Source of the DNA: an uncultured Kiloniellales bacterium
Lineage (GTDB): Bacteria; Actinomycetota; Acidimicrobiia; Spongiisociales; UBA5794
Length of the DNA stretch: 64,000 nt
NCBI GenBank assembly: GCA_964195155.1
Contig: CAXMOP010000015.1
Location: 10,056-74,055 of the forward strand
Direction of reading: 5' to 3'
Shown: in pieces, positions 4,324 to 63,716 of the stretch
Numbering within the stretch: position 1 is the first letter of the stretch
How the letters are laid out: the number at the start of each line of letters is the position of its first letter
The notes under the pieces: model-generated
What the model was told of the DNA's origin: nothing
Seen by the model: only the letters and a program-made list of their open reading frames with translations
The model's database searches: none
Position numbers and translations under genes: made by a program

Positions 4324-4363
4324 GCCCGAGCCCGAATTGCTTTTCGTTCAGAGTGGGCGAGAC

Positions 4364-4438
4364 CACGCAGTCCGGCGGCGAGCAGTAACGAATCGCTTCT
4401 CGATAGAGAGGCTGCGATCACGCAGTCCGGCGGCGAGC
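4364..4438 (+). repeat. two identical 20-nt direct repeats (CACGCAGTCCGGCGGCGAGC) 55 nt apart upstream of the acyl-CoA ligase
   Basis: Copies at 4364..4383 and 4419..4438, read directly; 90-165 nt upstream of ATG 4529. Confidence 0.85.
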
Positions 4439-4528
4439 CCCCGCGAGCCGCCCAACAAGCATGGCCGGGAACGCCTCGACGGCGGGTCCGGTAGGGTCGC
4501 CGTGGCGACGCGAGCAAACGAGGATGCA

Positions 4529-6148: not shown

Positions 6149-6242
6149 GACGGGACGCAAGACGCGAGACGCGATTTCGCTTTGACTCCCCCTCAGGTGT
6201 TCTGTCGCGGCGGGTTGCGACACTCGCCGGGTGTGCGGTTCG

Positions 6243-6267
6243 TTTCCTCCCCCGTTGGGGGAGGAAA
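6243..6267. terminator. perfect 11-bp stem / 3-nt loop hairpin between convergent genes (candidate bidirectional, tail-less terminator)
   Basis: TTTCCTCCCCC-GTT-GGGGGAGGAAA between the acyl-CoA ligase stop (6148) and the ftsK stop (6341). No U-tract beyond the stem. Confidence 0.45.
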
Positions 6268-6324
6268 GCAACCGACCGAAGGGAGGCTGACGGAGGGGCT
6301 ACCAGGCCTCGAAAGAGGGGAGGA

Positions 6325-6338
6325 ACGCGACTCGCGAC
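6325..6338 (-). repeat. heptanucleotide microsatellite (GAGTCGC on minus strand) x2
   Basis: CGCGACTCGCGACT on the plus strand, 2 nt after the ftsK stop codon. Confidence 0.85.
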
Positions 6339-6340
6339 TC

Positions 6341-8566: not shown

Positions 8567-8723
8567 GGGGACGACACGATACAAGAGGTTGCCGTCCCTT
8601 CCAACCACCCTCCGCGCGATCTCAACCGCGCAGAGTTACACGCATGTAGTTCGCGGCGTTGTTTTCGCCATTCCGCGGGCCAACAGCGTCATAGGCACCC
8701 CTACCGGCCCTGGGCTGGCAGCG

Positions 8724-15650: not shown

Positions 15651-17918
15651 ATGCGCGCCCACGACGAATCCGTTCTCAGCGAGGTGCTCCCGCCAGAAGA
15701 TCGGGTGATCGAAGCGGTCGTTGCCCGCTATCAGCGTGTCGCGCCCGCAGTAACCCGCTTTGCGCGAACGATCTCCGGCAACGAGGACCTCAGGGTGCGG
15801 CTCGGCTCGCAGGCATCGGCGTCCGCCGACGAGATCGTCATCGACCCCGGGGTGTTCCAGGCCGCCTACAGCCGCGCCGCCCCGGTGACGCCGACCGAGG
15901 TGGCCCTGACTTCGGCGCTGCACGAGGCGATCCACCTGATCGCCACCGACTTCGACGAGCAGCGCCCCATCCCGGACTCGTGGATGGCGCACCGCGAGAG
16001 CCTCGACAGCGACGGTGCCGATGCCCCGCCCCTGGCCGAGTTGACCACATACGAATGGACCGAACCCGAACCGACCGACGCCGACGACCACGATCCATAC
16101 GTCCGCCAAGACCTCCCCACCGACGGCACCGTCTCCCTCCTCGATGCCTTGCACATGGTTGCGGGACCGGCCGCCGAGGCGATGTTCCTCTCCATCGAGG
16201 ATGCCAGACAGGAGCGGAAGCACCTTGCTCCGTTCCCGGGCGCCCGTTCGGTGTTGTCGGATCTGTACCGGGCCGCAGTTCCCGGCGGCCTGGCGAGCGC
16301 CAGACCATTGGGACAATTCGCCCTTGCCTGCTTTCTGATCGTTGGCGACTACCTCGACCGCGATGCATTGCAGCGCCGCGTCGAGCCCAACGTGGCACTT
16401 GCCATCGACGACGCCATGGCATTCCTCGGCCCTGTGCCCGATATCGAGGATCCGTGGACGGTCGGCGGCGTCGCCTTGCAGCTCATCGAGGTCGCCCGCA
16501 TGCACGGCATCCTCACCGAGGGTGCTGCTGCCGATTCTCCGCTCGGGCGCAGCGCCGGGCGCGAAGCGGACCAGGGCGCCATCGCCGAAGGCGTCGACGC
16601 GGTGCGGGTCATCACCCCACCATTGGTCGACAAGGACTCCTACGAGCAGACCAGAAAGGCAGCCCAGACGGTATCGGCCGAACACGGCAAGCACGGTGAG
16701 GCCGACCAGGCCGGCGACCCGGCAACGGATCAGTTGATGCGGGTCTCATCCAGCCCGACCGTCTACCTACCAACGGGCCAGGCGGGCAAGTTGCTCGTCA
16801 CCGACTTCCCGCGATCCTTTGAGCGCTTCGGGCCCCAGGGACGGCAGCTGCTCGAAGCCGCGGCCGCAGAGTGGGGTGTTGCCCAACGCCGGGTGTCCGG
16901 TGAGTTGTATCCCCTCTTCCTGGCCAATCAGCGGCGAGGGTTGCGCAGCGGTTTCGATGCCGGAGATCTATCTCCGTACACGCCGTTGCTCCTCGGGGCG
17001 GGACTGTACGAGCGCATGTTCGAGCGCCGCGATCTGCCAAACCGGCGCTCCTACGGGGTCAGCCTCCTGGTCGACGGCTCGGCGTCGATGCTGCAACCAC
17101 GCCAACTTCGCGCCGGGTGGAAGCGCCCCTGGGCCCTCGCGGCCGCCATCCTCGGCGCCTGGACGCTTGCCCGCCTCGCCGACGAGTTGCAGATCGAGTT
17201 CGAGGTCGCCATCTTCAACCGTGGCTTCGCCGCTGCTTCCGGCGACTCCGAGCGTTCCTTCATCGAGCGCCGATCGGCGGCCACCGGCGCCCTGCGGCGC
17301 ACACAGGGCGGCGCGGCGGAACGCCTCACCCGCACCGTGAACCACTATCTCGTCAAGCGCTTCGCCGATCGGTGGCGGGTCCACGAGGACGTGCTCGCCG
17401 GCCTGTTCTGGATGGCCGCCTCGCCCCAGGATGCCGTTCGCGAAACAAAACGCGACCCGTCGGCTGGCCCGCCGCTTTCGATGTTCGAGAAGGCGTCGAA
17501 CGTCGACGAGTTCAACCTCGCCCACGCCGCCGAGCGGCTCTCGGCGCGCAATGTGTCGCATCGCATCATCGTGGTGCTCGCCGACGGCATGACCCGCGGT
17601 TCGGTACAGGCACTGGCCGCGACATCGTCCTCGATCGATCGCGGCGGGACCACCGTGCTCGGCATCGGCATCGGCGACGACACGGTCCAAGCCGCATACG
17701 CCAGGAACGCCGTGGTGCAGCAACCCGATGCCCTCGCCGCCGCCATGGTCAACGGCGTGCGATCTGCGCTGTTCCGTTCGATCACCGAGGGCGGCGGCGG
17801 GACCTGGTGGACCGAGGCCACCCAACCCGTTGCCGAACGAGCCGTCACCGAACGAGCCGTCACCGAACAAGCGGTCACCGACCGAACAATCATCAGAGCA
17901 AGCCGAGGAGAACAATGA
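15651..17918 (+). CDS. HExxH motif + von Willebrand factor A domain protein (CobT/NorD-like; DUF2201-type architecture)
   Basis: ATG 15651 (MRAHDES). HEAIH at 15921..15935. MIDAS D-x-S-x-S (VDGSAS) at 17073..17087 and later LADG. Stop overlaps the ATPase start (ATGA). Confidence 0.75.
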   Translation: MRAHDESVLSEVLPPEDRVIEAVVARYQRVAPAVTRFARTISGNEDLRVRLGSQASASADEIVIDPGVFQAAYSRAAPVTPTEVALTSALHEAIHLIATDFDEQRPIPDSWMAHRESLDSDGADAPPLAELTTYEWTEPEPTDADDHDPYVRQDLPTDGTVSLLDALHMVAGPAAEAMFLSIEDARQERKHLAPFPGARSVLSDLYRAAVPGGLASARPLGQFALACFLIVGDYLDRDALQRRVEPNVALAIDDAMAFLGPVPDIEDPWTVGGVALQLIEVARMHGILTEGAAADSPLGRSAGREADQGAIAEGVDAVRVITPPLVDKDSYEQTRKAAQTVSAEHGKHGEADQAGDPATDQLMRVSSSPTVYLPTGQAGKLLVTDFPRSFERFGPQGRQLLEAAAAEWGVAQRRVSGELYPLFLANQRRGLRSGFDAGDLSPYTPLLLGAGLYERMFERRDLPNRRSYGVSLLVDGSASMLQPRQLRAGWKRPWALAAAILGAWTLARLADELQIEFEVAIFNRGFAAASGDSERSFIERRSAATGALRRTQGGAAERLTRTVNHYLVKRFADRWRVHEDVLAGLFWMAASPQDAVRETKRDPSAGPPLSMFEKASNVDEFNLAHAAERLSARNVSHRIIVVLADGMTRGSVQALAATSSSIDRGGTTVLGIGIGDDTVQAAYARNAVVQQPDALAAAMVNGVRSALFRSITEGGGGTWWTEATQPVAERAVTERAVTEQAVTDRTIIRASRGEQ
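17835..17879 (+). repeat. 15-bp tandem repeat x3 (GAACGAGCCGTCACC) at the 3' end of the vWA gene
   Basis: Encodes ERAVT-ERAVT-EQAVT; read directly. Confidence 0.85.
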
Positions 17919-21424: not shown

Positions 21425-21496
21425 GGTGACCCACCGAATGTCCCAGCGCTCGTCCCACCGCTTGTCCCAACGCTTGTCCCAAGGCTTGACCCACCG
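21425..21496 (+). repeat. 12-bp tandem repeat x6 (consensus CTTGTCCCAMCG)
   Basis: GGTGACCCACCG AATGTCCCAGCG CTCGTCCCACCG CTTGTCCCAACG CTTGTCCCAAGG CTTGACCCACCG, between stop 21417 and the btpA ATG 21507. Confidence 0.85.
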
Positions 21497-21506
21497 CCTC
21501 ATCGGG

Positions 21507-24125: not shown

Positions 24126-24211
24126 TCATTTACCAAAGCCTCAACCCATGATCGAGGCTTTCCCGAGATACCGTGTGGTTAAGCGGATCGCGGCCCTCAC
24201 CCACCGCCTGA

Positions 24212-24242
24212 CCCCTCCCCCCTAACCCCCCTCCCCCCCTAA
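24212..24242 (-). other. G-quadruplex-prone tract (G7-A-G6-TTA-G6-A-G4 on the minus strand; C-rich on the plus strand)
   Basis: Plus strand reads CCCCTCCCCCCTAACCCCCCTCCCCCCCTAA, 15-45 nt upstream of the annotated lhr start. Confidence 0.6.
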
Positions 24243-24256
24243 TACCAGCCCGCGGA

Positions 24257-27200
24257 ATGCGCGGGAACCGCGATCCCGGGATAGCCGTCACCCTCGGCCG
24301 GTACCCTGTCGTCGTGGACGCACTCGACGGCTTTTCCGACGCCACCAAGACGTGGTTCGCTTCGGCGTTCGTCGCGCCCACCGCGGCGCAGGTCGATGGC
24401 TGGCCGGCGATCGCATCGGGAAGCCACACCCTCATCCACGCCCCGACCGGCTCGGGAAAGACGCTCGCTGCGTTCCTCTGGGCACTCGACCGTCTCGGGC
24501 AGGAGCCCACGCCTCCCGAGCGCGAGCGCTGCCGCGTCCTCTATATCTCCCCGCTGAAAGCGCTGGCGCACGATATCGACCGCAACCTCCGAACTCCGCT
24601 CGCCGGTATCCGCCTCGCCGCTCAACGACTCGGCGTCGAGTCGCCGGAAATCTCGACCGGGATGCGCACCGGTGACACCCCCCAGCGCGACCGACAGGCA
24701 ATGCTCCGTCACCCGCCCGACATCCTGATCACCACGCCGGAGAGCCTGTACCTGATGCTCACCTCTCGGGCTCGCGAGATCCTCGCGTCGGTGCGTTGGG
24801 TGATCATCGATGAGATCCATTCGATCGCCGGATCCAAGCGCGGCACGCATCTGGCCATCAGCCTGGAGCGCCTGGCGGCGATCACCGATGTCGAGCCGCA
24901 GCGTATCGGCCTGTCGGCAACCCAGCGCCCCCTGGAGGACATCGCAGCGTTTCTCGGCGGCGGCATCCCCGATGGGGATCGCTGGACGCCGAGGCCGGTC
25001 AACATCGTGGACGCGCCCCGAGACAAGGCCCTCGATATCGAGATCGTGGTCCCGGTCGCCGACATGACCAAACCGGAGCTGACCGTGGCTCCCGATGGCG
25101 ACGACCCCGAAAACCCGGCGCGGCGATCGATCTGGCCCGCCGTGTATCCAAGATTGCTCGACCTGCTGGCAGAACATCGCTCGACGATCTTCTTCGTCAA
25201 CTCTCGCGGTCTGGCCGAACGGCTTGCCGCCGAATTGAACCGCCTCGCCGACGACGAAGTCGTCAGGTCCCACCATGGATCGGTGTCGCGCGAGCAGCGC
25301 ATCGAGATCGAGGACCGGCTCAAGAGCGGCGACCTGCGCGGTGTCGTTGCCACCTCGACACTCGAGCTGGGAATCGACATGGCAGCGGTCGACCTGGTGG
25401 TACTCGTCGAGTCGCCGTCCTCGGTAGCCAGCGGGCTCCAGCGCGTGGGCAGGGCCGGGCACCAGGTCGGAGCACCGTCGGTGGCGAAGGTCTTCCCCAA
25501 GCATCGTGGCGACCTGCTCGAGACGGCGGTGGTCGTCGAGCGGATGTATGCCGGGGCCATCGAGGAGACCTCGATACCGCAGAACCCCCTCGACGTCCTT
25601 GCCCAGCAGATCGTCGCCATCGCTGCGGACGCCACGGTTGCGGTCGACGATCTCTACGACCTGGTCAGGCGATCGATGCCGTACCGCGACCTGGGCCGGG
25701 GTGTCTTCGACTCGGTGCTCGACATGCTCGCCGGCCGCTATCCGTCGGACGAGTTTGCCGAGCTTCGCCCGCGCATCATTTGGGATCGTGTCGCCGGGAC
25801 CATCGAAGGCAGACGCAACGCGCGGATGCTTGCCGTCACCAATCCGGGGACCATTCCGGATCGCGGCCTTTACCGGGTCGTCCTGCCCGACGGGGGCCGC
25901 GTCGGCGAGCTCGACGAAGAGATGGTCTACGAGTCCCGACCCGGCGACACCATTGTGCTCGGCACCTCGTCGTGGCGTGTCGACGACATCACCCACGACC
26001 AGGTCGTCGTCTCCCCTGCCCCTGCCAGCTCCAATGCCCGGCTCCCCTTCTGGCACGGCGATGCCCCCGGCCGGCCGCTCGAACTGGGCCGGGCCGTCGG
26101 AGCATTCATCCGCACCATCGGGGGCATGGACCAACAAACCGCCATCAACACCCTCATCGAGCAGTACCGGCTCGATCCGTGGGCCGCCTCCAACCTCGCT
26201 GGTTTCATCGAGGAGGAGCGAGCGGCCACCGGTGTGCTGCCGACCGATCGCACGATTGTTGTCGAGCGCTTCCGAGATGAGATCGGCGACTGGCGCGTCG
26301 CCGTGCTGACGCCTTTCGGGGCAAGGGTTCATGCGCCGTGGGCGCTTGCCGCGCGCCACCGGTACCGGGAGCGTCACGGCACCGCGGTCGACATGATCTG
26401 GGCGGACGACGGCATCCTCTTCCGCTTCCCGGACGTCGACGAACCGCCCGACACCCAGGAGCTGCTCATTGAACCCGAGGAGATCGAGGAAACCCTGCTC
26501 GCCGAGGTCGCAGACTCGGCCTTGTTCGCCTCGCGGTTTCGAGAGGCCGCGGCGCGATCGCTGCTGCTGCCAAAGCGCCGGCCCGGGACGAGGACGCCGC
26601 TGTGGCAGCAGCGCAGAAGAGCGGCAAGCCTCCTCGAGGTGGCGAAGAAGCACGGGACCTTTCCCGTGGTGCTCGAGACCTACCGCGAGGTGTTGCAGGA
26701 CCATTTCGACCTTCCCGCGCTCAACGAGGTCCTCAGCGATGTGAGCCGCCGGCGCACTCGTGTGGCCCAGGTCGACCTGGCGGGGCCGAGCCCCTTCGCT
26801 TCGTCGCTCACCTTCGACTTCGTGGCCGCATTCATGTACGAGTACGACGCTCCGGTCGCCGAGCGACGGGCGATGGCCCTCACCCTCGATCGCAGCCTGC
26901 TGGCCGAACTGCTCGGCGAGCCCGCATTTCGGGATCTGCTCGACGCCGAGGTCATCGGCTCGGTCGAAGACGAGCTGCAGCACCGCTCGGACGAGCGTCG
27001 CGCGAGATCCCAGGACGGGCTGCACGATCTGCTCCGCGACCTCGGACCGCTCCCGGCCGGGGAGATCGCCGAGCGGACGACCAGCCCCGGTGACGCGGCG
27101 GCTTGGCTCGCATCGCTCGAGCAATCGGGCCGGATCATCGCAGTCACGATCTCCGGTGAACCGCGGTTCGCCGCCATCGAAGATGCCTCCCGGCTGCGCG

Positions 27201-28684
27201 ACGCGGTCGGCGTGGCGATCCCGCAGTCGGTCCCGCAGGCGTTCCTCGATCCAGTGTCGGACCCGACCGGCGATGTCGTTGCCCGCTACGCACGAACGCA
27301 CGGGCCATTCGCCGCTTCCGACGCCGCCGCCTCGGTTGGCCTCCCCATCGGTGTCGTCGACGAGGTCCTCCGCCGTCTCGAGGCCGAGAATCGGGTAGCC
27401 GGGGGCGCCTATCGCCCCGGCGGGCGGGAGCACGAATGGGTCGACGTCGAGGTCCTGCGCAGGATCAGAAGGCGCAGCCTTGCCGTGCTCCGCTCCGAGG
27501 TCGAGGCCGTCGAGCCGAGCGCCCTCGGCCGGTTCGTTCCGGCCTGGCAGCAGATCGGGCTCAGGCGATCGGGCGCAGACCACATCGACCAGATCGTCGG
27601 TCAGCTGCGCGGGGCAGCCGTGCCCGCCTCGATCCTCGAGTCCGACGTGCTCGCAGACCGCTCCGCTACCGCGGGCATCGACTCGCTGCTCGCCAGTGGC
27701 GATCTGGTCTGGGTGGGGAGAGGGCCTCTCGGCGCGCGCGATGGCCGGATCGCGCTCTATCCCCGCCAGCAGGTGCCGCTGCTGCTGAGCCAGGTGCCCG
27801 AAGAGCTCCCGGACGGTCCGCTCCACCAAGTGATCCGGACCCGGCTCGACGACCATGGTGCTTCCTTCTTCGCCGACCTCTACCAGGCTTCAGGCGGCGG
27901 CAACCCGGACGATGTTCTCGACGCACTGTGGGATCTCGTCTGGTCCGGCGAGGTCACCAATGACACCCTCGCCCCGGTGCGAGCGTTTGTATCGGGCCGT
28001 TCCCGGGCGCGAACGAATCGGCGCACGCCGCTCGCCTCCGCCGCACCACCGGCAGCCACGGGCCGTTGGTATCGAACCAGCGAGCTGGAGGGGGCGACAC
28101 CGTCCACCGAGGCCCGGGCCACCGCTCTCGCCGAAATGCTTCTCGATCGCCACGGCATCGTGACCAGGGGCCTTGCCCTCGCCGAAGGCATCGTTGGTGG
28201 GTTCTCGACGCTCTACCCGGTGTTCTCGGCGATGGAGGATGCAGGACGGGTCAGGCGCGGATACTTCATCGAAGGACTTGGCGGAGCGCAGTTCGGGCAC
28301 CCCGGCGCCATCGATCGTCTCCGATCGACCACCGATACCGGGATCATGGTGATGGCGGCGGCGGACCCTGCCAACCCGTACGGCGCCGCGATCGGCTGGC
28401 CCGACCACCACGCATCGCGGCCGGCGAGACGGGCCGGTGCTCACGTCGTGCTCAGCGACGGTGCACTGGTCGCCTACGTGGAGCGGGGTGGTCGCAGCGC
28501 CCTCGCCTTCACCGATGACCCGGCAACCTTCGCAACCGCCCTTGCCGCGGTGGCACCACGGCACCGCCGGATGACCCTCGAACGCATTGACGGCGACAGT
28601 GCGTCGGGATCGCGGTGGGGTGATCCCCTCGCTACCGAAGGCTTCGTCCGGGGCTACAAGGGATTGACGTTCGAGTCCCGGTGA
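24257..28684 (+). CDS. lhr: ATP-dependent helicase Lhr (large helicase-related, DEAD/DEAH)
   Basis: 1475 aa. HAPTGSGKT, VIIDEIHS, helicase C domain and a long Lhr-type C-terminal extension. Exact start uncertain (in-frame GTG codons slightly downstream). Confidence 0.9.
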   Translation: MRGNRDPGIAVTLGRYPVVVDALDGFSDATKTWFASAFVAPTAAQVDGWPAIASGSHTLIHAPTGSGKTLAAFLWALDRLGQEPTPPERERCRVLYISPLKALAHDIDRNLRTPLAGIRLAAQRLGVESPEISTGMRTGDTPQRDRQAMLRHPPDILITTPESLYLMLTSRAREILASVRWVIIDEIHSIAGSKRGTHLAISLERLAAITDVEPQRIGLSATQRPLEDIAAFLGGGIPDGDRWTPRPVNIVDAPRDKALDIEIVVPVADMTKPELTVAPDGDDPENPARRSIWPAVYPRLLDLLAEHRSTIFFVNSRGLAERLAAELNRLADDEVVRSHHGSVSREQRIEIEDRLKSGDLRGVVATSTLELGIDMAAVDLVVLVESPSSVASGLQRVGRAGHQVGAPSVAKVFPKHRGDLLETAVVVERMYAGAIEETSIPQNPLDVLAQQIVAIAADATVAVDDLYDLVRRSMPYRDLGRGVFDSVLDMLAGRYPSDEFAELRPRIIWDRVAGTIEGRRNARMLAVTNPGTIPDRGLYRVVLPDGGRVGELDEEMVYESRPGDTIVLGTSSWRVDDITHDQVVVSPAPASSNARLPFWHGDAPGRPLELGRAVGAFIRTIGGMDQQTAINTLIEQYRLDPWAASNLAGFIEEERAATGVLPTDRTIVVERFRDEIGDWRVAVLTPFGARVHAPWALAARHRYRERHGTAVDMIWADDGILFRFPDVDEPPDTQELLIEPEEIEETLLAEVADSALFASRFREAAARSLLLPKRRPGTRTPLWQQRRRAASLLEVAKKHGTFPVVLETYREVLQDHFDLPALNEVLSDVSRRRTRVAQVDLAGPSPFASSLTFDFVAAFMYEYDAPVAERRAMALTLDRSLLAELLGEPAFRDLLDAEVIGSVEDELQHRSDERRARSQDGLHDLLRDLGPLPAGEIAERTTSPGDAAAWLASLEQSGRIIAVTISGEPRFAAIEDASRLRDAVGVAIPQSVPQAFLDPVSDPTGDVVARYARTHGPFAASDAAASVGLPIGVVDEVLRRLEAENRVAGGAYRPGGREHEWVDVEVLRRIRRRSLAVLRSEVEAVEPSALGRFVPAWQQIGLRRSGADHIDQIVGQLRGAAVPASILESDVLADRSATAGIDSLLASGDLVWVGRGPLGARDGRIALYPRQQVPLLLSQVPEELPDGPLHQVIRTRLDDHGASFFADLYQASGGGNPDDVLDALWDLVWSGEVTNDTLAPVRAFVSGRSRARTNRRTPLASAAPPAATGRWYRTSELEGATPSTEARATALAEMLLDRHGIVTRGLALAEGIVGGFSTLYPVFSAMEDAGRVRRGYFIEGLGGAQFGHPGAIDRLRSTTDTGIMVMAAADPANPYGAAIGWPDHHASRPARRAGAHVVLSDGALVAYVERGGRSALAFTDDPATFATALAAVAPRHRRMTLERIDGDSASGSRWGDPLATEGFVRGYKGLTFESR

Positions 28685-36529: not shown

Positions 36530-36609
36530 GGTGGGAGTTTGCCACTGAGCGGCCGATACTGAAGGACTCGCAAGACGCTACGTCGCAGGTGAACACAGAA
36601 ACTCCTGCT

Positions 36610-36637
36610 CGCGACTCGCGACTCGCGACTCGCGACT
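36610..36637 (-). repeat. heptanucleotide microsatellite (CGCGACT x4 on plus = GAGTCGC-type on minus)
   Basis: Four perfect units read directly, 15 nt upstream of the lplA-like ATG and 81 nt upstream of the lipoprotein operon start. Confidence 0.9.
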
Positions 36638-36652
36638 CGGTAGTCTGTCGGC

Positions 36653-42400: not shown

Positions 42401-42420
42401 GCGAGTCGCGAGTCGCGAGA
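42401..42420 (+). repeat. heptanucleotide microsatellite (GCGAGTC x2 plus GCGAGA)
   Basis: Begins 3 nt after the ybaK-like stop codon, in the sense orientation. Confidence 0.85.
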
Positions 42421-44738: not shown

Positions 44739-46457
44739 TCAGCCGAAAGCCACGACCAGGACTGCGACCACGCCCAGCAGGATCGCGAAGCCCCCCAGGC
44801 CAATGATGAAGGACTTGGGGATGTCCTCGGTGCCGTTCTCCTCCAGAATGGAATCGAGCATCCCGAGTACGTCTCTGGCTCGCATACCGAGCGCGGAAGA
44901 GCCAAGGCCGAAGCTGGGCAGGCTGGGTCGCCACCCGGTGATGCCCTTGAGACGTGACGTCTTTGCCGTCACCACTAATTCCTCGCGGTCGGCAGCGTCG
45001 GAGGCCACGTCCGCAGGATCGCCGGCATCGGCGTCGCTGGCTCCGGCTTCTTCTGGTTGGTCGTCGTTGTACGACCAACCAGGCTCGTCCTCCGCCTGCT
45101 CACGATCGGCGTCGTCGTAGTACGACCAGCCGCGTTCGTCCTCGGCGGCAGGCTCGCCGGCACCGAACGCCGGCACTTCCGCCGCGGTCACGGCATCCTC
45201 CGTGAACAGGCCCGACCCATATCCACCGACTTTCGCGGCGTCGTCCGGTGCGGCGTCGTCCGCTGCGGCGTCGTCGGGTACGGAGCCCTCGCGGCCATCC
45301 TCGAGGTGAAACTCGCTCGCCTGATCCGCGGGTGCTTCACCAGCGGAGACTTCGGCAACAGCGACCGGCTCGCCCGGCATGGCTGCGGCCTCTTGCTCCT
45401 CGGCGTAGAAGCCGTCCCAGAAGTCCTTTGCTTGACCGGATCGGGGAGCCGCTGCGGGGGGCTGTGGGTCGGTACCTGGCGCGGCTTCGAGTGGGAAGGC
45501 CAACGCCGGGTCTATTGGCTGGGCACCAGGTGGGGTGGGTGCAGCCACGGGGCCGTCGCCACCGGCCGGCCCGGTGCTCTGCTCCAGCTGGATCTCCACC
45601 GCCGCCGCCGGCGCTGCTGCAATTGGTGCCACCGCGGCAGCGGCCTGGGGCGCAACCGACTCCACGGCCGGAGTCGGTGGCACGGTCGATGCCGCTACCG
45701 GTAGCGGTGCGGCCGTTGGAGGCGGCGCGGATGCAGCGGGCGCGGGGCTTGTCGGAGGAGCCGACGACACGGTTCCCGATACCACCCCGGGGGTCTCAGG
45801 CGTCGTCGCCGGGGAGGCAGCCGGCCCGGGTGGGATGGCCGCCACCGAGGGTGCGACGGCGGGCTGTGCGGCAACCGGTGCCGCGATCTCGGTGGGAGGG
45901 GTCGTTGGAGCGGGCTGTGGCGCGGCGGGTGGGGGCGTCGACGGAGAAGGCGAAGGCGCTGCCGGAGTCGGAGGCACGGCCGCGGCGGCCGGAGCAGCCG
46001 GGACCGCCGGTGGGGCAGCGGGTGGCTCAGGCGACGCCGGAACGGCCGCGATGGGAGCAGCGGGGACGGGTGCAGCCGGAACCGTCGGGGCGGCGGAAGG
46101 AGCGGTTGGCGGCATCGGGGCCGCGGCCAGTTCATCGACCGCGGTGGTCGCCGGGGCCGGCGCGGTGCCGGCGCCTGGCATACCGGAGAGAATGGCGAAC
46201 TCCAGTGGAGAATCAGGGTTGAACAACACGACCTCGCGCCCGAGAGTGAGGTGGAATGTTCCGTCCGCCTCGCGCCGGAGCTTCAGGTCGGTGCGATTCC
46301 AACGCCCGAGCTCGGTACCTCCGGCAGTAAGGACCAGGGTCTGCGCATCGAGCATGATCGTCGAGGGCAACCCGTTCTCGATTGACCCGGGGATCCTGAC
46401 CTCCCCGGTGAACGTCGTCGTCATCCCATCTCCATCTGGTGGGTCAACGTCCTCCAT
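44739..46457 (-). CDS. Pro/Ala-rich tail-anchored membrane protein, unknown function
   Basis: 572 aa. ~90-aa structured N-terminus, >200 aa P/A/T low complexity, acidic region, single C-terminal TM (IIGLGGFAILLGVVAVLVVAFG). Start may be ATG 46424. Confidence 0.6.
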   Translation of the reverse strand: MEDVDPPDGDGMTTTFTGEVRIPGSIENGLPSTIMLDAQTLVLTAGGTELGRWNRTDLKLRREADGTFHLTLGREVVLFNPDSPLEFAILSGMPGAGTAPAPATTAVDELAAAPMPPTAPSAAPTVPAAPVPAAPIAAVPASPEPPAAPPAVPAAPAAAAVPPTPAAPSPSPSTPPPAAPQPAPTTPPTEIAAPVAAQPAVAPSVAAIPPGPAASPATTPETPGVVSGTVSSAPPTSPAPAASAPPPTAAPLPVAASTVPPTPAVESVAPQAAAAVAPIAAAPAAAVEIQLEQSTGPAGGDGPVAAPTPPGAQPIDPALAFPLEAAPGTDPQPPAAAPRSGQAKDFWDGFYAEEQEAAAMPGEPVAVAEVSAGEAPADQASEFHLEDGREGSVPDDAAADDAAPDDAAKVGGYGSGLFTEDAVTAAEVPAFGAGEPAAEDERGWSYYDDADREQAEDEPGWSYNDDQPEEAGASDADAGDPADVASDAADREELVVTAKTSRLKGITGWRPSLPSFGLGSSALGMRARDVLGMLDSILEENGTEDIPKSFIIGLGGFAILLGVVAVLVVAFG

Positions 46458-46490: not shown

Positions 46491-49400
46491 TTATCGAAAA
46501 TCACGAGAGCGGATTCCTTCCAGGGGCCATTCGGTAAAGCGTCGGGCCACCAGGTTGGTGACCCCGTCCTCATGCTCCAGAATCCCTTCTATGACAACCC
46601 CTACGGCCTTGCGAGCTACTTCGTAATGTGCCTCCCACACCTGGGGAAGAATCACGACGTTGAGCAGGCCGGTCTCGTCCTCCAGGTTGATAAAGCGAAC
46701 ACCCTTCGCGGTTGATGGACGCTGACGGTGGGTGATGATGCCACCGGCCTTGATCCTCGTGTTATGTCGGGGTGAGGACAACACGTCGGCGATGAGGACA
46801 CAACCCATGTCATCGAGCATCTCTCGAACAAAGACAACCGGGTGCGTCGTTGATATACCGGTCGACCACAGATCGGCCTGCATCTCCTCCGCCGGAGCGA
46901 TGTTGGGGAGCGGGGGGCGTGCCCCACCATGGTCGAGGGCGAGCCGGTCGGGTCCTTGCTCGGCGAGGGTGCCGGCACTCCAGACGCCCTGGCGGCGTCC
47001 CAAACCGATCGGGGCGAGCGCACCGGAGGCGGCCAACCCCTCATAGGCGTCGAGCGGCAGCCCGGTGCGTTGGGCGAGGTCCTCAGGGGTCGCAAAGGCG
47101 CCGGCGGTCATCCTCGCCGCCTCGATGCGGGTGATCTCGGCATCCCCCAGGTTGCGCACGTAGCGCAGCCCGATCCGAAGGGCAACGGCAGGGCGCAGTG
47201 GGTCGTCGACCGGGCCCCTCCCCCGCCGCCACAGCCCGTCCAAGTAAGCCGACGTGTCGTCCGGGTCGGCGTCGAACGGCTCCACGGTGCAGTCGAACGC
47301 GGAGGCGTTGACATCGGGGGGGAGGACGACCACGCCGTGGTGCTGAGCATCCTGGACCAGCGAGTTCGGCGAGTAGAAGCCCATCGGCTGAGCATTGAGC
47401 AGCCCACAGAAGAACTCCGCCGGCCAGTGGTACTTCAACCAGGAGGTCGCATAGACGATGTAGGCGAACGACACCGAATGCGACTCGGGGAAGCCGAATG
47501 AGGCAAAACCCTGGAGCTTCTCCCAGATCTCGTCGGCGGCGGCGCCGGTGACACCGTTGGCCTCCATACCGTCGTACACCTCGCTGCGCAGCCGATCCAT
47601 GGCCTCGGACGATCGCTTGTGGGTCATCGCCTGGCGCAGCCGGTCGGACTGCCCTGGGGTGAACCCGGCGCAGATGCGGGCCAGTTCCATCAGCTGCTCC
47701 TGGAACACCGGGATCCCCAGTGTCTTTTTCAGGATGGGTTCGGTCAATGGATGCGGATACCGGACCGGGTCCAGCCCGTTGCGGCGGCGCAGGAACGGGT
47801 GGACCGAGTGGCCCTGGATGGGTCCGGGCCGGATCAGCGCCACCTCGATGGCAAGGTCGTAGAAGGTCCTTGGCTTCATCTTCGGCAGGGTGGCCATCTG
47901 GGCACGCGACTCGACCTGGAACACGCCGACGGTGTCGGCGCGGGTCAACATGTCGTAGACGATGGGCTCCTGGGGAATCGTCGCCAGGTCGATGTCGATC
48001 CCGTGAACGTCGGCGATCGTGTCCACGGACATGTGCATGGCGTTGAGCGCACCGAGGGCGAGCAGGTCGAACTTGACGATGCCCATCGTCGCACAGTCGT
48101 CCTTGTCCCATTGCAGCACCGTGCGATCCTCCATGCGGCCCCACTCCAGCGGCACCACCTCCCACAGCGGTCGGCGGGCGACGACCATCCCGCCTGAGTG
48201 AATGCCGAGATGCCTGGGAAAGCCGTCGAGGCGCTGACAGACGTCGTAGATCAGCTCGGTGGTCAAACCGGCCGGCAGGTCGACGACCTCGGGAATCGCT
48301 TGCGGGCTGCGGGAATCGAGGTACTTGGTCAATCCATTGACCTGGGCCTGGGTCAGCCCGAATGCCTTGCCGACGTCCTGGAGCACCGAGCGGGCCCGGT
48401 AGGTGATCACGTTGGACACCATGGCGGCGCGCTCCCGCCCGTATCTCCGGTAGCAGTACTGGATGACCTCCTCGCGGCGCTCGGCCTCGAAGTCGATGTC
48501 GATGTCGGGGGGCCGGCCTCGTTCCTCTGAGAGGAAACGCTCGAATGGAAGGTGCAGGCGGATCGGATCGACCCGGGTCAGGCCCAGGCAGCGGCACACC
48601 GCAGAGTCCGCGCCGGAGCCGCGGACCTGGCAGTAGATGTCTCGGGAGCGGGCGTAGTTGACGATGTCCCACGCCACCAGGAAGAACCCGGAGAACCCGA
48701 GCTCGAAGATCACGCTCAACTCGTGCTCGAGACGAGCCTCGGCCTTGGGATCGATGCCGTTGCGGTCGCCCGGGTACACATCACCTGCACCCTCGAAGAC
48801 GAGATGGCGCAGATACTCGTTCTCGTCGTTGAAAGCGCCCGGCATCGGGAAGTCGGGAAGCTGGGGTGTGAGCAGGTCGAGGTCGAAGGCAAGCGCTTCC
48901 CCCAATTCGGCGGCGCGCTCGACCGCACCCGGATACCGGGCGAACCGCTCCGCCATCTCGTCCGCGCTGCGCAGATAGGCAAGGTCGCTTGCGGAGCGGA
49001 AACCATCGGCCACCTCGAGATCGCGCCGACCACCAACGGCGGCGAGAACGTCGCCGAGGACCGCGTCGCTGCGGTCGGCGTAGTGCACGTTGTTGGTCGC
49101 CACCGTTGGCAGACCGAGTCGGGCGGCGACCTCGGCGAGAAGGTCGTTTCGGGCGTCGTCGTCCGGAAGGCCGTGGTGGGTCAGCTCGATGAAGAGCCGG
49201 CCGGGGAAGACCTCACCGAGGCGCGATGCCGCCGCCATCGCCCCGGCGAGATCGCCGGCCTGTGCTGCCCGGGGCACCGCCCCCTTGCGGCAGCCGGTGA
49301 GGGCATAGAGGTTGCCCCGCCGCGACGCCTCGGCCAGGTCCTCGTAGCGGTACTCGGGAGCGTCCTTCTTGCCCCGGAACTGGCCGCTCGTGATAAAGCG

Positions 49401-49883
49401 ACTGATGGCGGTATATCCGACGGGGTCGGGGGCGAGCAAAACGAGATGATCGGTGGGTGGCAGGTCGATGGGCTTGGTCCCATGCATCCGCCGGATCCGC
49501 CCCCGGCGGGACCGCGCTTCGTCCCCCCCGCCGCCAGGCGGGGGGGACGCGGGTTTGCTCGGCAAACCCGCAGGGGGGGCTTCCTTGTCCCCGCCAGGCG
49601 GGGGGGACGCGGGTTTGCTCGGCAAACCCGCAGGGGGGGCTTCCTCGCGACTCGCGACTCGCGACTCGCGACTCATCCCCACCTCCGTCCCGTACACGAT
49701 GGGCATGGCGAAGATCTGCGCCGCCTGATGCACCTTGACCACACCGCGGAACCCGTCATGATCGGTGACGCCGAATGCGGTGTAACCGAGCTCGGCAGCA
49801 CGCTCGACGAGGCGGATCGGGTGAGATGCCCCATCGAGGAAGCTGAAGTTGGTATGGGCGTGGAGCTCCGCGTACCGTGCCAC
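46491..49883 (-). CDS. dnaE2: error-prone DNA polymerase DnaE2 (pol III alpha family, ImuC)
   Basis: GTG start. PHP N-terminus YAELHAHTNFSFLDGAS, PDIDIDF, GIHSGG, ends ...SRDFR like mycobacterial DnaE2 (recalled). LexA box 14 nt upstream. Carries an in-frame repeat insertion. Confidence 0.9.
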   Translation of the reverse strand: MARYAELHAHTNFSFLDGASHPIRLVERAAELGYTAFGVTDHDGFRGVVKVHQAAQIFAMPIVYGTEVGMSRESRVASREEAPPAGLPSKPASPPPGGDKEAPPAGLPSKPASPPPGGGGDEARSRRGRIRRMHGTKPIDLPPTDHLVLLAPDPVGYTAISRFITSGQFRGKKDAPEYRYEDLAEASRRGNLYALTGCRKGAVPRAAQAGDLAGAMAAASRLGEVFPGRLFIELTHHGLPDDDARNDLLAEVAARLGLPTVATNNVHYADRSDAVLGDVLAAVGGRRDLEVADGFRSASDLAYLRSADEMAERFARYPGAVERAAELGEALAFDLDLLTPQLPDFPMPGAFNDENEYLRHLVFEGAGDVYPGDRNGIDPKAEARLEHELSVIFELGFSGFFLVAWDIVNYARSRDIYCQVRGSGADSAVCRCLGLTRVDPIRLHLPFERFLSEERGRPPDIDIDFEAERREEVIQYCYRRYGRERAAMVSNVITYRARSVLQDVGKAFGLTQAQVNGLTKYLDSRSPQAIPEVVDLPAGLTTELIYDVCQRLDGFPRHLGIHSGGMVVARRPLWEVVPLEWGRMEDRTVLQWDKDDCATMGIVKFDLLALGALNAMHMSVDTIADVHGIDIDLATIPQEPIVYDMLTRADTVGVFQVESRAQMATLPKMKPRTFYDLAIEVALIRPGPIQGHSVHPFLRRRNGLDPVRYPHPLTEPILKKTLGIPVFQEQLMELARICAGFTPGQSDRLRQAMTHKRSSEAMDRLRSEVYDGMEANGVTGAAADEIWEKLQGFASFGFPESHSVSFAYIVYATSWLKYHWPAEFFCGLLNAQPMGFYSPNSLVQDAQHHGVVVLPPDVNASAFDCTVEPFDADPDDTSAYLDGLWRRGRGPVDDPLRPAVALRIGLRYVRNLGDAEITRIEAARMTAGAFATPEDLAQRTGLPLDAYEGLAASGALAPIGLGRRQGVWSAGTLAEQGPDRLALDHGGARPPLPNIAPAEEMQADLWSTGISTTHPVVFVREMLDDMGCVLIADVLSSPRHNTRIKAGGIITHRQRPSTAKGVRFINLEDETGLLNVVILPQVWEAHYEVARKAVGVVIEGILEHEDGVTNLVARRFTEWPLEGIRSRDFR
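49531..49673 (-). repeat. repeat module inside dnaE2: two 60-bp direct repeats (55 nt identical) plus (CGCGACT)x4
   Basis: 49531..49585 equals 49591..49645. Each unit contains the hairpin GCGGGTTTG-CTCGG-CAAACCCGC. Heptamers at 49646..49673. Translated as SRESRVASRE-(EAPPAGLPSKPASPPPGGxx)x2. Confidence 0.9.
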
Positions 49884-49896: not shown

Positions 49897-49912
49897 TCGA
49901 ACATATGTTCGA
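49897..49912. promoter_or_regulatory. LexA (SOS) box TCGAACATATGTTCGA
   Basis: Perfect palindrome matching the actinobacterial consensus TCGAAC-N4-GTTCGA. Abuts a TAGCGT -10-like hexamer 6 nt from the dnaE2 GTG. Confidence 0.85.
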
Positions 49913-49942: not shown

Positions 49943-50161
49943 ATGCTCTACGACGAAGACCCAGATGAGCCCGGCCCGGAAGAGATCGCGCGCCTTCAGC
50001 GCAGAACCTTCGTCCGTCGGATGATCGTCATCGTCGTGGTGATCGCCATGATTGCGACACTGCTGGTTCCGATCATCGTTCGCGTGGTGAGAGCCCCATC
50101 CGAACCCGATGGCATCCTGGCGGTTCAAACACTGATCGCGTCGCGTAGGATAAAACTATGA
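49943..50161 (+). CDS. small single-pass membrane protein (72 aa)
   Basis: MLYDEDPDEPGPEEIARLQRRTFVRRMIVIVVVIAMIATLLVPIIVRVV... ATGA overlap with the ACT gene. Divergent from dnaE2 across the LexA box. Confidence 0.55.
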   Translation: MLYDEDPDEPGPEEIARLQRRTFVRRMIVIVVVIAMIATLLVPIIVRVVRAPSEPDGILAVQTLIASRRIKL

Positions 50162-50535
50162 AGGAATTCTCGGTCACCCTCGCCAACAAGCCGGGACAGC
50201 TCGCCACCCTCGCCGGCCAGCTCGCCGACGCCGGAGTCCACATCGAGTCGCTGGCGGCAATCGGCGCCAACGGAGAGACCCTGGTGCGCTTCATGCCCGA
50301 CGACGCCGACGCCGCACGACGAATCCTGACCGGGGCGGGCGTCGTGTTCGAAGAGCGGCCGATCCTCGACACGTTCCTTCCCGACGAGCCCGGAGCGCTT
50401 GCCGCGGTCGCCAAGCGCCTCGCAGACGCCGGGGTCAACATCGACTCGATCTACCTACTCCACTCCAATGCCGAGGGGCTGCATTTCGCGGTCACAGTCG
50501 ACGACCCCGAACTGGCCCAAGCGGAGCTGGACTGA
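50158..50535 (+). CDS. ACT domain-containing protein (tandem ACT)
   Basis: 125 aa. Two copies of the KPGQLATLAGQLADAGVHIES / EPGALAAVAKRLADAGVNIDS ACT pattern. Confidence 0.75.
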   Translation: MKEFSVTLANKPGQLATLAGQLADAGVHIESLAAIGANGETLVRFMPDDADAARRILTGAGVVFEERPILDTFLPDEPGALAAVAKRLADAGVNIDSIYLLHSNAEGLHFAVTVDDPELAQAELD

Positions 50536-50620
50536 AGCAGTCGTCAGTCCTCAGCCTTCAGTCCTCAGCCAGAAGCGCCACGAGCTACCTGCCAACTGAA
50601 GACTGTTGACTGACGACTTC
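50534..50620. repeat. long imperfect hairpin built from inverted heptamer-periodic arrays (NNCAGTC ... GACTGNN)
   Basis: Left arm GAAGCAGTCGTCAGTCCTCAGCCTTCAGT versus reverse complement of right arm GAAGTCGTCAGTCAACAGTCTTCAGT. Fills the gap between two convergent stop codons. Confidence 0.75.
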
Positions 50621-62231: not shown

Positions 62232-63142
62232 TGCTCGACGTCAGCGCAGTATCGATTCGATTCGGTGAAGTCACCGCCCTCGACGGCGTGAACCTGATTG
62301 TCGAGGACCGATCCGTAGTCTCGCTGATGGGTCCTTCGGGATCAGGCAAGTCCACGCTATTGCGAGTCATCTCAGGGCTCGAGCACCCCGATTCAGGCGA
62401 CGTGCGCTGGGACGGCTCCTCGGTACTCGACATCCCGACACACCGGCGCGAGTTCGGCATGATGTTCCAGGACTACGCCCTGTTTCCTCACCGCACGGTC
62501 GCCCAGAACGTCTCGTTCGGGTTGCGAATGCAGCGGCTTCCCGCCGACGAAATTGCCATTCGTAGAGAAGGGGCTCTCGATCTCGTCGGCCTCACCGACT
62601 ACGGACCTCGCTCGGTCGCAACCCTCTCGGGCGGAGAACAGCAGCGGGTTGCCCTGGCCAGGACACTGGCCCCAGAGCCGCGGCTCGTTCTGCTCGACGA
62701 GCCGCTCGGCGCCCTCGATCGAGCCTTGCGGGAGCGCCTCGTTGCGGACATGCGCGACATCTTTGAGTCGATCGGTGTGACCGCCCTCTACGTGACCCAC
62801 GACCGTGACGAGGCCTTCGCCATCGCCGACAAGGTCGCCGTCATCGACGGTGGCCGGATCATTGCGGAGGGAACGCCCGAGGAACTCTGGCACCGGTCCT
62901 CGACCGACCGCATCGGCGAGCTAATCGGATTGAACAACCGGCTGAAGGGCGCAGTCGAGGTGTCGACCAACGAGCCGACCAACGGCACCGTGCGTCGGTC
63001 GAGCTTTCGAAGCGGTCGCTACCAAGTCGAAGTTGATCTGGACGCCGGCTCGAGTGTCGTTGCAGTCTCGGATCAGCGCCTGGAAGCGGGAACCCGCGTC
63101 GGGATCACGTCGGAGCGGTCACCACTGAAGACTGAAGACTGA
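62231..63142 (+). CDS. thiQ: ABC transporter ATP-binding protein (ThiQ/FbpC-like with C-terminal extension)
   Basis: GPSGSGKST, LSGGEQQRVALAR, LLDEP. The stop lies inside the heptamer array. Confidence 0.8.
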   Translation: MLDVSAVSIRFGEVTALDGVNLIVEDRSVVSLMGPSGSGKSTLLRVISGLEHPDSGDVRWDGSSVLDIPTHRREFGMMFQDYALFPHRTVAQNVSFGLRMQRLPADEIAIRREGALDLVGLTDYGPRSVATLSGGEQQRVALARTLAPEPRLVLLDEPLGALDRALRERLVADMRDIFESIGVTALYVTHDRDEAFAIADKVAVIDGGRIIAEGTPEELWHRSSTDRIGELIGLNNRLKGAVEVSTNEPTNGTVRRSSFRSGRYQVEVDLDAGSSVVAVSDQRLEAGTRVGITSERSPLKTED

Positions 63143-63154
63143 AGACTGGCGACT
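63124..63154 (+). repeat. heptanucleotide microsatellite (ACTGAAG x3, then ACTGGCG ACT)
   Basis: Read directly. Contains the thiQ TGA (63140..63142). Confidence 0.9.
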
Positions 63155-63158: not shown

Positions 63159-63716
63159 TCAGTCGATCAGCTCGGCGGTGAACACCACCTGGCCAAATTC
63201 GGCCTGGAGGTTGACGATCGTGTACCGCGCCAACTCTCGTGCCCTGAACACCTGGTGGTTTGGCGCCTCAATGTCGAAAGTGGCGGTGGCGTCCCCGACG
63301 AAGAGGACTTCGTAGCCGAGGTCGTTGGCCATGCGGGCCGAGGTCTCACAGGACACGTTGGATTGGATGCCACAGATGGCAACGCCCTTGACGCCCTGTT
63401 CCTGCAGCCAGCCGTGAAGGTCGGGCTTGCCGAGGAATGCCGAGTGCGTCGACTTCACCACCAGCAGATCGGGCTTACCGCTGACCTCGTCCTTGAAGGC
63501 GTTGCCCTCGTTCCCGGCACCAAGCGGGGACATGTCGTCGTGTGAATCGTGGCGCACGAACACGATGGGCCATTTGTGGGAACGCCAGGCCTCGATCAGC
63601 TTGGCAACGTTGGCCTCGCACTCAGGGTTGTTGCGGGGGCCATAGAACGAATCGTCGTCAAAACCCTTTTGCATGTCGATGACGATGAGAGCGGTGCTCC
63701 CGTTCCAATCCGGCAC
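63159..63716 (-). CDS. cysteine hydrolase / isochorismatase family protein
   Basis: 185 aa. ALIVIDMQKGF, ...VVKSTHSAF..., AICGIQSNVSCETSA catalytic Cys pattern. Confidence 0.8.
   Translation of the reverse strand: MPDWNGSTALIVIDMQKGFDDDSFYGPRNNPECEANVAKLIEAWRSHKWPIVFVRHDSHDDMSPLGAGNEGNAFKDEVSGKPDLLVVKSTHSAFLGKPDLHGWLQEQGVKGVAICGIQSNVSCETSARMANDLGYEVLFVGDATATFDIEAPNHQVFRARELARYTIVNLQAEFGQVVFTAELID

Follow-up and report, generated by a model that had tools for sequence, protein, structure and literature searches.

A clade-wide hypervariable repeat loop in the PHP domain of the SOS-type polymerase DnaE2 of uncultured Acidimicrobiia

The dnaE2 locus and its repeat block

The stretch of DNA analysed here, referred to throughout as the window, comprises 64,000 nucleotides (positions 10,056 to 74,055 of contig CAXMOP010000015.1, assembly GCA_964195155.1) from an uncultured bacterium whose GTDB lineage lies in the Acidimicrobiia. 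It carries a dnaE2 gene, encoding an error-prone C-family DNA polymerase of the ImuC type, into whose PHP domain a block of tandem repeats is translated. The locus is a gene-specific, clade-wide hypervariable repeat loop in dnaE2 that behaves as an in-frame minisatellite joined to a heptameric simple repeat, and in the window it has the following parts.

46491-49883, minus strand: dnaE2, a continuous open reading frame (ORF) of 1130 aa with a GTG start
49488-49679, minus strand: variable loop-coding segment of 192 nt or 64 codons (GMSRES...RRGRIRR), between the anchors IVYGTEV and MHGTK
49644-49674, minus strand: heptamer array, CTCGCGA x4.4 with 100% matches in Tandem Repeats Finder
49531-49645, minus strand: two tandem 60-nt units (Tandem Repeats Finder period 60, 1.9 copies, 100% matches)
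49609-49631: hairpin at the core of the unit read first, with a stem of 10 bp and a loop of 3 nt, GCGGGTTTGC-TCG-GCAAACCCGC
49549-49571: hairpin at the core of the unit read second, with a stem of 10 bp and a loop of 3 nt, GCGGGTTTGC-TCG-GCAAACCCGC
49520-49549: terminal hairpin closing the block, a perfect 13 bp with a loop of 4 nt, CGTC7GCC and GGCG7ACG (CGTCCCCCCCGCC / GGCGGGGGGGACG)
49523-29, 49540-46, 49573-79, 49600-06 and 49633-39: five 7-nt runs of C or G
49897-49912: LexA (SOS) box TCGAACATATGTTCGA, a perfect TCGAAC-N4-GTTCGA, 14 nt upstream of the dnaE2 GTG

The Pfam matches of the dnaE2 product follow the domain order of C-family polymerases (PHP / Pol III alpha / finger / HHH / OB), with PHP at residues 6-237, DNA_pol3_alpha at 356-609, the finger domain at 613-777, HHH_6 at 850-965 and a weak OB match at 1048-1116. 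Its nearest database relatives are annotated as error-prone DNA polymerases, and the closest public sequences to the gene come from uncultured Acidimicrobiia. The motif TCGAAC-N4-GTTCGA, which we take to be the actinobacterial LexA consensus, has a single match within the window, that before dnaE2, and LexA would be expected to bind there; among the related loci compared below (designated by L numbers) the same position is also occupied in L001-L004, L018, L081-L083, L085-L088, L090 and L091. On the strength of the LexA box and the domain order, the window gene is by its sequence a dnaE2 of the SOS type. DnaE2 drives damage-induced mutagenesis and the evolution of drug resistance in actinobacteria.

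Read along the coding strand, the loop consists of GGGATG, (AGTCGCG)x4.3, the two 60-nt units, GGCGGGGGGGACG... and the codons for RRGRIRR. The heptamers occupy 30 nt, starting at nt 211 of the coding sequence (CDS), and are translated as SRESRVASRE. The 60-nt unit is present as two identical 55-nt copies (49531-49585 and 49591-49645), has the coding-strand form GAA-GCCCCCCC-TGCG-GGTTTGC-CGA-GCAAACC-CGCGT-CCCCCCC-GCCTGGCGG.. and is translated as EAPPAGLPSKPASPPPGG.. in each copy, so that a perfect 10-bp hairpin flanked by two C7 tracts makes up each unit. In the terminal 13-bp stem the last C7 tract pairs with the G7 tract that follows it, and an equivalent C7/G7 closing hairpin of 11-13 bp is found in L011, L082, L083, L087 and L088. 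The continuous reading frame, the repeat elements and the translation SRESRVASRE followed by two copies of EAPPAGLPSKPASPPPGG.. had all been described in an earlier note made from the letters of the window, and all are present; the hairpin in each unit, which that note gave as 9 bp, proves slightly longer, with its 10-bp stem and 3-nt loop. The terminal 13-bp hairpin and the clustering of the C and G runs are additions to that note. Five of the eight C or G runs of at least 7 nt in the whole window fall within the 117 nt between 49523 and 49639, and the 201-nt repeat segment is predicted to fold as RNA at -137.6 kcal/mol (z = -6.5, or z = -7.3 as DNA), with none of the shuffled sequences being as stable.

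Misassembly typically strikes at tandem repeats and homopolymers, and the block might for that reason be suspected of being an artefact. However, the 1130-aa product is encoded again, with one or two substitutions and unchanged repeat numbers, in three more assemblies, from ENA, NCBI and JGI, so that four assemblies agree on the protein, and for this reason we regard the repeat block as real; many independent contigs of related species also show the same architecture. An assembly artefact is extremely improbable.

The position of the repeats within the protein is well defined. In an AlphaFold2 model built on 33 aligned sequences, residues 72-143 are without secondary structure (pLDDT 43-58) and are bracketed by strands at residues 62-71 and 144-151, corresponding to beta3 and beta4 of the PHP domain; this disordered stretch between two strands agrees with the proposal that the insert lies in frame within a loop of the PHP domain. 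Escherichia coli Pol III alpha aligns to residues 3-64 and 145-348 of the window protein, with about 15 residues between (opposite residues 68-144), and Thermus Pol III alpha likewise aligns on both sides of the loop with about 15 residues between. The estimate in the earlier note of some 55-60 extra residues therefore stands when E. coli Pol III alpha is the reference (about 60 aa), but close relatives reduce the excess to only about 24 aa above their median.

The same loop has received an insertion in another polymerase. The alignment with PolC (9qpc) places residues 5-70 of the window protein at PolC residues 363-428 and residues 146-283 at PolC residues 641-780, the latter with a weak E-value and colinear with the former, and the PolC insert of about 210 residues therefore lies at the same loop as the DnaE2 repeats. 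The exonuclease of PolC is inserted within its PHP domain (PMC3919608). In both proteins it is the PHP loop past the strand ending in a conserved Glu, and before the strand with a conserved His, that takes a large insertion, but the PolC insert is folded, conserved and catalytic, whereas that of DnaE2 is of low complexity, predicted to be disordered, and hypervariable. Because of the PolC insert, the Pol III alpha alignments and the AlphaFold2 disorder taken together, the DnaE2 variable loop is, as judged from alignment and modelling, a known permissive site of the PHP fold.

Residues H8, H10, D17, H42, E67, H146, C198, H237 and D242 (window numbering) are invariant across the aligned Acidimicrobiia DnaE2 proteins, and such His, Asp, Glu and Cys positions are typical of the PHP metal site. 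The variable loop exits between E67 and H146, on the barrel face that bears these metal-site-type residues.

The loop and its repeats in related bacteria

The region between the same anchors was compared in 18 Acidimicrobiia genomes, 5 metagenome contigs and 9 contigs found via proteins, and 107 loops were taken from the 120 closest full-length DnaE2 proteins. These loops range from 28 to 84 aa with a median of 40, as against 64 aa in the window, and only their ends are conserved. Most of the 107 are without a repeat, and a 7-aa periodicity is present in nine of them, compared with none or one for each of periods 5, 6, 8 and 9. At the DNA level the relatives' loops hold differing heptamers together with zero to three 60-nt units, in either orientation and in varying frame. 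The heptamer units differ among the window, L002, L004, L009, L011, L018/L087, L082, L086, L091, L093 and L094, as these examples illustrate.

L004: TCGCCGG x4.4
L002: GACAGGA-like x4.9
L018 and L087: GAGATCC/GAGACTC x10.7
L082: GAGATCC/GAGACTC x10
L086: CTCGAGA x3.4
L091: CAGTCRT x4.4
L093: AGTCGAG x4.6 and CAGGACT x5.1
L094: a 21-nt super-period with 96% matches

Copy numbers differ between very close relatives. There are three 60-nt units in L018 and two in L087, in flanks that are 99.5-100% identical, and one unit in L083 and two in L088 (flanks 97.5% identical); L082 has 10 heptamers and no unit and L086 3.4 heptamers and one unit, with flanks about 97% identical. Two proteins of one 90% cluster, P0128 and P0261, differ by 7 aa in the loop, the equivalent of three heptamers or 21 nt. 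The nearest other species, represented by L090 (88-90% nucleotide identity over dnaE2), has an unrelated, in-frame loop of 246 nt (1079-1324) that matches neither the window nor any other locus retrieved. The earlier note had envisaged colonisation of the loop by a repeat module; the relatives show that this was no single event, a whole clade of Acidimicrobiia dnaE2 genes having a hypervariable repeat loop at this site. The same note had named a loop conserved at the protein level and constant in repeat length among orthologues as counting against its interpretation; the loops vary in both length and sequence. We found no description of such a loop in dnaE2 in the literature, in searches that were not aimed specifically at the dnaE2 of Acidimicrobiia.

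The L090 loop carries C5-6/G5-6 hairpins of its own (CTCCCCCTCAGGGGGA, CTCCCCCCTGAGGGGGGAG), and the L090 scaffold has a gap with a duplicated edge directly after the loop.

The flanks of the 60-nt unit, GCCCCCCCTGCG-N18-GCGTCCCCCCC, occur with two different cores: the hairpin core is found in the window, L011 (two units), L085 and L091, and a non-palindromic core (TCGTCGCTTCGCTCCTCC) in L018, L083, L086, L087 and L088. In L081 the unit is reverse-complemented, and L002, which has it as a 39-nt inverted pair, reads it in another frame. The peptide is not conserved, and what is passed on is the DNA of the unit rather than its peptide. Neither the unit nor its hairpin has a second copy in the window. 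A scan of 241 million metagenome records for the unit flanks returned seven loci, five of them dnaE2 with the unit in the same loop and the other two a single unrelated AT-rich sequence seen twice, and the viral contigs scanned for the unit gave no match.

These distributions bear on the idea, raised in the earlier note, that an intergenic-type module resembling repetitive extragenic palindromic (REP) elements had entered the gene. The intergenic label suits the heptamer, which forms four further arrays in the window (the loop heptamers of L093 likewise recur in intergenic DNA), but both this label and the REP-like description are unfit for the 60-nt unit, because the unit is found only in the dnaE2 loop. 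[quoted passage not shown] RPEs are palindromic repeats inserted in frame in protein-coding genes, and offer a precedent for a palindromic insertion of this kind (PMC10969869). The likeness to them extends to hairpin DNA of tens to about 150 bp that is translated as extra peptide where the fold tolerates it (PMC10969869), but RPE families are dispersed over dozens of unrelated genes, whereas the 60-nt unit is found in one loop of one gene and multiplies in tandem rather than by dispersal. A small mobile palindromic element of the REP, MITE or RPE type, inserted in the loop in frame, would fit a block that is both palindromic and in frame, that occupies the one site in either orientation, depending on the species, and that is patchy among close relatives. 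It fits poorly with the restriction of the unit to one site, with the tandem nature of the copy-number changes, which is expected of slippage rather than of transposition, and with the unmatched insert of L090; no target-site duplication is evident and no flanking transposase was seen, and the C7...G7 ends of the block, which can be read as short inverted termini, are also explained by the closing hairpin. We consider such an element very unlikely. A phage or other mobile origin was set aside as well, given that no viral contig matched the unit and that the unrelated L090 insert matches nothing.

Like in-frame minisatellites (variable-number tandem repeats), the 60-nt unit is a tandem repeat of a multiple of three nucleotides whose copy number differs between close strains. 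It is distinguished from them by its internal palindrome, a hairpin between C7 flanks that has been retained from species to species, and by its combination with a second repeat unit that is not a multiple of three.

The heptamer, in contrast to the 60-nt unit, belongs to a wider habit of the genome, of which the window provides a census over 64 kb. Arrays of the dnaE2 heptamer, or of a related one, lie at the following places.

4301-4324: GAGTCGC x3.4, in a divergent intergenic region
6326-6340: CGCGACT x2.1, directly adjoining the stop codon of 6341-8608, a minus-strand gene
6154-6174: a related array, GACGCGA-like x3, abutting the stop codon of a plus-strand gene in the same intergenic region as 6326-6340
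36608-36639: the dnaE2 heptamer x4.6, 14 nt before the ATG at 36653
42401-42419: the dnaE2 heptamer x2.7, beginning 4 nt past the stop codon at 42397

Dimers of the heptamer have 10 matches in the window against 0.2 expected, and perfect arrays of at least 2.5 copies number five for period 7 and none for periods 8-12. The arrays at 4301, 6326, 36608 and 42401, which are the four intergenic occurrences already reported in the earlier note, all adjoin gene starts or ends. A similar arrangement is seen in L093, where the convergent intergenic region 9218-9281 (syntenic with the region at 50538 of the window) consists almost wholly of AGTCGAG x3.3 and GGACTCC x2.7, with one array at each stop codon; the two motifs are the same as those of the dnaE2 loop in L093 and are roughly inverted with respect to each other, and they could serve there as terminator-like hairpins.

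Several further arrays were observed. The convergent intergenic region 6149-6340 has heptamer arrays at both stop codons and a central C5/G5 hairpin (CCTCCCCCGTTGGGGGAGG), ingredients which are those of the dnaE2 loop. At 50538-50568 a CAGTCCT x4.4 array has its first base 3 nt past the stop codon of the gene for an ACT-domain protein, and the minus-strand gene 63159-63716 has an array of a different motif, ACTGAAG x3.6 (63124-63148), at a distance of 10 nt from its stop codon. Inverted GTATTAC x2.4 and GTAATAC x3 arrays are located downstream of a DUF998 gene in L094 (7653-7716, 8374-8394) and L095 (1000-1063), with an additional GTATTAC array upstream of that gene in L094; in addition, (GACCGAC)x3 lies directly upstream of the dnaE2 start region. 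The loop heptamers contain restriction or nicking sites (GAGTC, GAGAC, GGATC), and repeat synthesis driven by a nickase is known in vitro, but we do not use this as support.

Genome-specific heptamer repeats have been described elsewhere, for example TAACTGA in Beggiatoaceae and cyanobacteria, mostly intergenic and near start codons (PMC4679880), and, in Xanthomonas and Nostoc, GGGNATC repeats located near start or stop codons (PMC4692102); according to the summary of Mrazek (2007) given in PMC4679880, heptamer repeats are abundant, Actinobacteria included. The arrays described here resemble these simple sequence repeats in being perfect tandem heptamers of two to five copies (PMC4679880, PMC4692102), in the recurrence of one genome-specific motif at many sites, most of which are intergenic and near a start or stop codon, and in occasional ORF copies at tolerant places. 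They differ in motif (GAGTCGC, with GAGTC/GACTC-core kin in sister genomes), in their host, a member of the Acidimicrobiia, and in the repeated colonisation of a single coding site, that of the dnaE2 loop, by different heptamers in different species.

Reading frame, hairpins and turnover of the loop

The heptamer is not a multiple of three, and the earlier note had pointed out that slippage by one unit would frameshift dnaE2, an arithmetic that simulation confirms. If one or two heptamers, or 1 nt of any C7/G7 run, are added or removed, DnaE2 is truncated at 218-233 aa, and loss of three heptamers or of one 60-nt unit keeps the frame. There is no stop codon inside the window loop in any frame, and with all three frames open across it paired shifts can therefore cancel. 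The differences between relatives preserve the frame, being of 60 nt or 21 nt, and all checked loci are in frame except L018 and L081. In L018 the third unit has a 5-nt deletion that breaks the frame, and since L018 and L087 show no other indel over the 5.3 kb in which they overlap (99.2-99.9% identity), this out-of-frame allele could be real; the loop of L081 is also out of frame. Judged from their names (contig_N) alone, the L018 and L081 contigs would be long-read assemblies.

These properties raise the possibility of a contingency locus, in which slippage of the heptamers or of the C7/G7 runs, or partial deletion of a unit, would toggle dnaE2 and with it SOS mutagenesis. Six slippage-prone tracts lie within 155 nt, a single step at one of them would truncate the protein, and a second shift anywhere in the loop would restore its frame; the L018 deletion, in a sequence otherwise free of indels relative to the in-frame L087, and the out-of-frame L081 also speak for such a locus. 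Reversible frameshifts in a run of seven Cs are known in glpK of Mycobacterium tuberculosis. Repeat-mediated phase variation, heptanucleotides included, is established in Haemophilus, and the dnaE2 loop has in common with the contingency loci of Haemophilus influenzae a repeat that is not a multiple of three, and homopolymer runs, within an ORF whose frame is destroyed by a single step (PMC2651432). It differs from them in that its arrays are short (only 4.4 copies in the window), in that no within-population variation in length was seen and the fixed differences keep the frame, and in that the gene encodes a DNA polymerase rather than a surface or restriction-modification function. Repeat numbers do not differ among the four independent assemblies of the window's population, which is a weak test of on/off variation given that consensus assemblies can hide minority variants, and every checked locus bar L018 and L081 is in frame; both of those contigs look by name to be long-read, where repeats and homopolymers are most prone to error. 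A frameshift switch is arithmetically possible and is without positive support, and we think it quite unlikely that the loop operates as one.

Many public gene calls begin dnaE2 at the internal Met of MHGxK and give products of 996-999 aa that lack the first 130-odd residues; P0130, P0131, P0208, P0217, P0224, P0244, P0249, P0253, P0262 and P0266 are proteins with this start. Those that were checked are not off alleles. At the DNA level L091 and L092 are in frame, and the start reflects the choice of the gene caller or a contig edge, while in L090 the gene is cut by the scaffold gap and the copy of the loop upstream of the gap is in frame. Many truncated N-terminal DnaE2 fragments, also lying on long contigs, have frameshift-like ends far from the loop, and are uninformative about it.

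The hairpins of the 60-nt unit are a separate matter. Four variants of the stem have been found, with the peptides AGLPSKPA, AGSQGEPA, ADSRSESA and ADLLRKSA in the order given here.

Window: GCGGGTTTGC/GCAAACCCGC
L011: GCGGGTTCGC/GCGAACCCGC
L085: GCGGATTCGC/GCGAATCCGC
L091: GCGGATTTGC/GCAAATCCGC

When five units from these four species are aligned, each of the 50 stem cells is paired, and the loop of 3 nt is different each time. Two stem positions covary (G-C to A-U and C-G to U-A) and all four combinations occur; each compensatory change is non-synonymous on both arms and alters two amino acids. With only five sequences, the observed covariation score is reached by six of 500 shuffles. The unit flanks GCCCCCCCTGCG ... 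GCGTCCCCCCC are 100% identical between the window and L087, in surrounding DNA that is 73-75% identical.

The hairpins and the C7/G7 tracts could on this evidence form a selected nucleic-acid element, some 210-400 nt into the dnaE2 CDS, that throttles expression of the polymerase, whether through pausing of RNA polymerase or the ribosome, as a target for RNase or through a G-quadruplex of the four G7 runs on the template strand; the translated loop would then be a passenger. The fold that is far more stable than its shuffles, the fully paired stem with compensatory changes that cost amino acids on both arms, and the conservation of the C7 flanks and of the closing C7/G7 hairpin across both core classes all point in this direction, as do the strong palindromes in the loops of L001, L011 and L090. 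However, the unit is patchy among relatives, being absent from L090 and L093/L094, and most of the 107 loops are without any repeat, so that it is no conserved dnaE2 regulator. The loop belongs to no Rfam family, the single match of 24 bits against a threshold of 43 not being credible; neither an intrinsic terminator nor an internal promoter was found in it, there being no terminator-like site and no U tract, and the spacing between G7 runs, 19-26 nt, is long for a quadruplex. The covariation comes from five sequences, with a score that shuffles can equal. Even in the absence of selection, one arm of a palindrome can be overwritten with the sequence of the other by template switching, which could thus maintain perfect palindromes; the upkeep of the stem may reflect either such arm-to-arm copying or selection. 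Overall we regard a selected structural element as unlikely, although it has a chance that should be kept in view.

Two of these palindromes are described here in more detail. The loop of L001, which has no 60-nt unit, holds at 3216-3265 a 25-nt imperfect palindrome centred on GCCCGTATACGGGC, and L011 has at 37-61, upstream of its unit, a perfect 11-bp hairpin (CCGTTGCGCCC/GGGCGCAACGG). We also considered a programmed -1 frameshift of the dnaX type, for which C CCC CCU is present in register together with a hairpin, and rejected it: the spacer is 0-1 nt rather than 5-9 nt, and either shifted frame yields only a truncated product of 223-233 aa.

The account that we favour, and consider probable, is that the loop holds lineage-specific, fast-evolving repeat DNA that is driven by slippage, filtered by frame and tolerated in a permissive, predicted-disordered PHP loop of the LexA-regulated DnaE2. 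Three layers would be superimposed: a heptanucleotide array, of a type that also adjoins gene ends in the intergenic DNA of the same genome; one to three tandem 60-nt units (C7-TGCG, the 10-bp hairpin and GCGT-C7), which are confined to dnaE2; and the closing C7/G7 hairpin. Differences would arise through replication slippage, hairpin-mediated template switching and unequal recombination between repeats, and the sole strong filter on them would be the reading frame of the polymerase, with 60-nt steps, 21-nt steps and paired compensating shifts as the survivors. The product would be a longer disordered loop, rich in Pro, Gly, Ser and Ala, and lacking a sequence-specific role. Frameshift-off mutants would be a frequent by-product of this turnover, and nothing indicates that the cell uses them.

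Several observations weigh against this account. It gives no reason why, of all the coding sequences in the window, dnaE2 alone should host heptamer arrays. No change in length separates the four assemblies, and because these assemblies of the same population are identical in length, turnover is slower than at classical hypermutable loci. The identical C7 flanks amid DNA of 73-75% identity, and the perfect 10-bp stem in four species with its two covarying pairs, suggest a maintained nucleic-acid structure; because of the flank identity and the compensated stem, something would seem to maintain such a structure that a purely neutral model does not predict. A bolder proposal would be that in a clade of Acidimicrobiia dnaE2 has become the single coding site to host hypermutable repeats because they are useful there, the heptamers, the C7/G7 runs and the 60-nt units forming a reversible frameshift switch and the conserved hairpins acting as a brake on expression; populations would then be mixtures of cells that have inducible mutagenesis and cells that lack it, and the mutator would itself be gated by mutation. 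We find this decidedly doubtful.

Neighbouring genes and wider implications

The annotated neighbours of dnaE2 are a small membrane ORF, an ACT-domain protein, a 324-aa protein without assignment and BipA. The first of these, at 49943-50161 on the plus strand, encodes 72 aa with one predicted membrane helix and no Pfam match, and the second, at 50158-50535 on the plus strand, encodes the 125-aa ACT-domain protein, its start overlapping the 72-aa ORF by ATGA. The pair is divergent from dnaE2, an arrangement that is kept in L081, L090, L093 and L094, and since the LexA box sits between the pair and dnaE2, the two genes may also be under SOS control.

Other repeats in the window are of different kinds. 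A C-rich imperfect repeat with three C runs of at least 6 nt (CCCCTCCCCCCTAACCCCCCTCCCCCCCTAA) occupies intergenic DNA at 24207-24242, directly upstream of the 1476-aa ORF at 24257-28684. Two copies of a direct repeat of roughly 20 nt (CACGCAGTCCGGCGGCGAGC), about 60 nt apart, lie within 4352-4440, shortly downstream of the array of heptamers at 4301-4324; the gene placed at 4337, near this array, has an uncertain start position. Tandem repeats with a unit that is a multiple of three are present at 17833-17885 (15 nt x3.5), 21430-21497 (12/24 nt x4.9) and 45235-45283 (15 nt x3.3), and on a rough gene map they lie inside ORFs or at their ends.

The dnaE2 loop has implications at several levels. 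For the annotation of these genomes it carries a warning, in that many database entries start dnaE2 at the internal Met just past the loop. It extends the genome-specific heptamers known from cyanobacteria, Xanthomonas and sulfur bacteria to the uncultured Acidimicrobiia, and indicates that they can enter a coding region. A PHP loop that tolerates almost any sequence should be useful for the engineering of tags, and for understanding how PolC acquired its exonuclease. If the repeats do not gate dnaE2, the locus offers a clean natural example of selection for reading frame shaping the turnover of repeats, in steps of 60 nt and 21 nt and with every frame open; if they should prove to gate or throttle the gene, they would represent a new way of regulating the supply of mutations.

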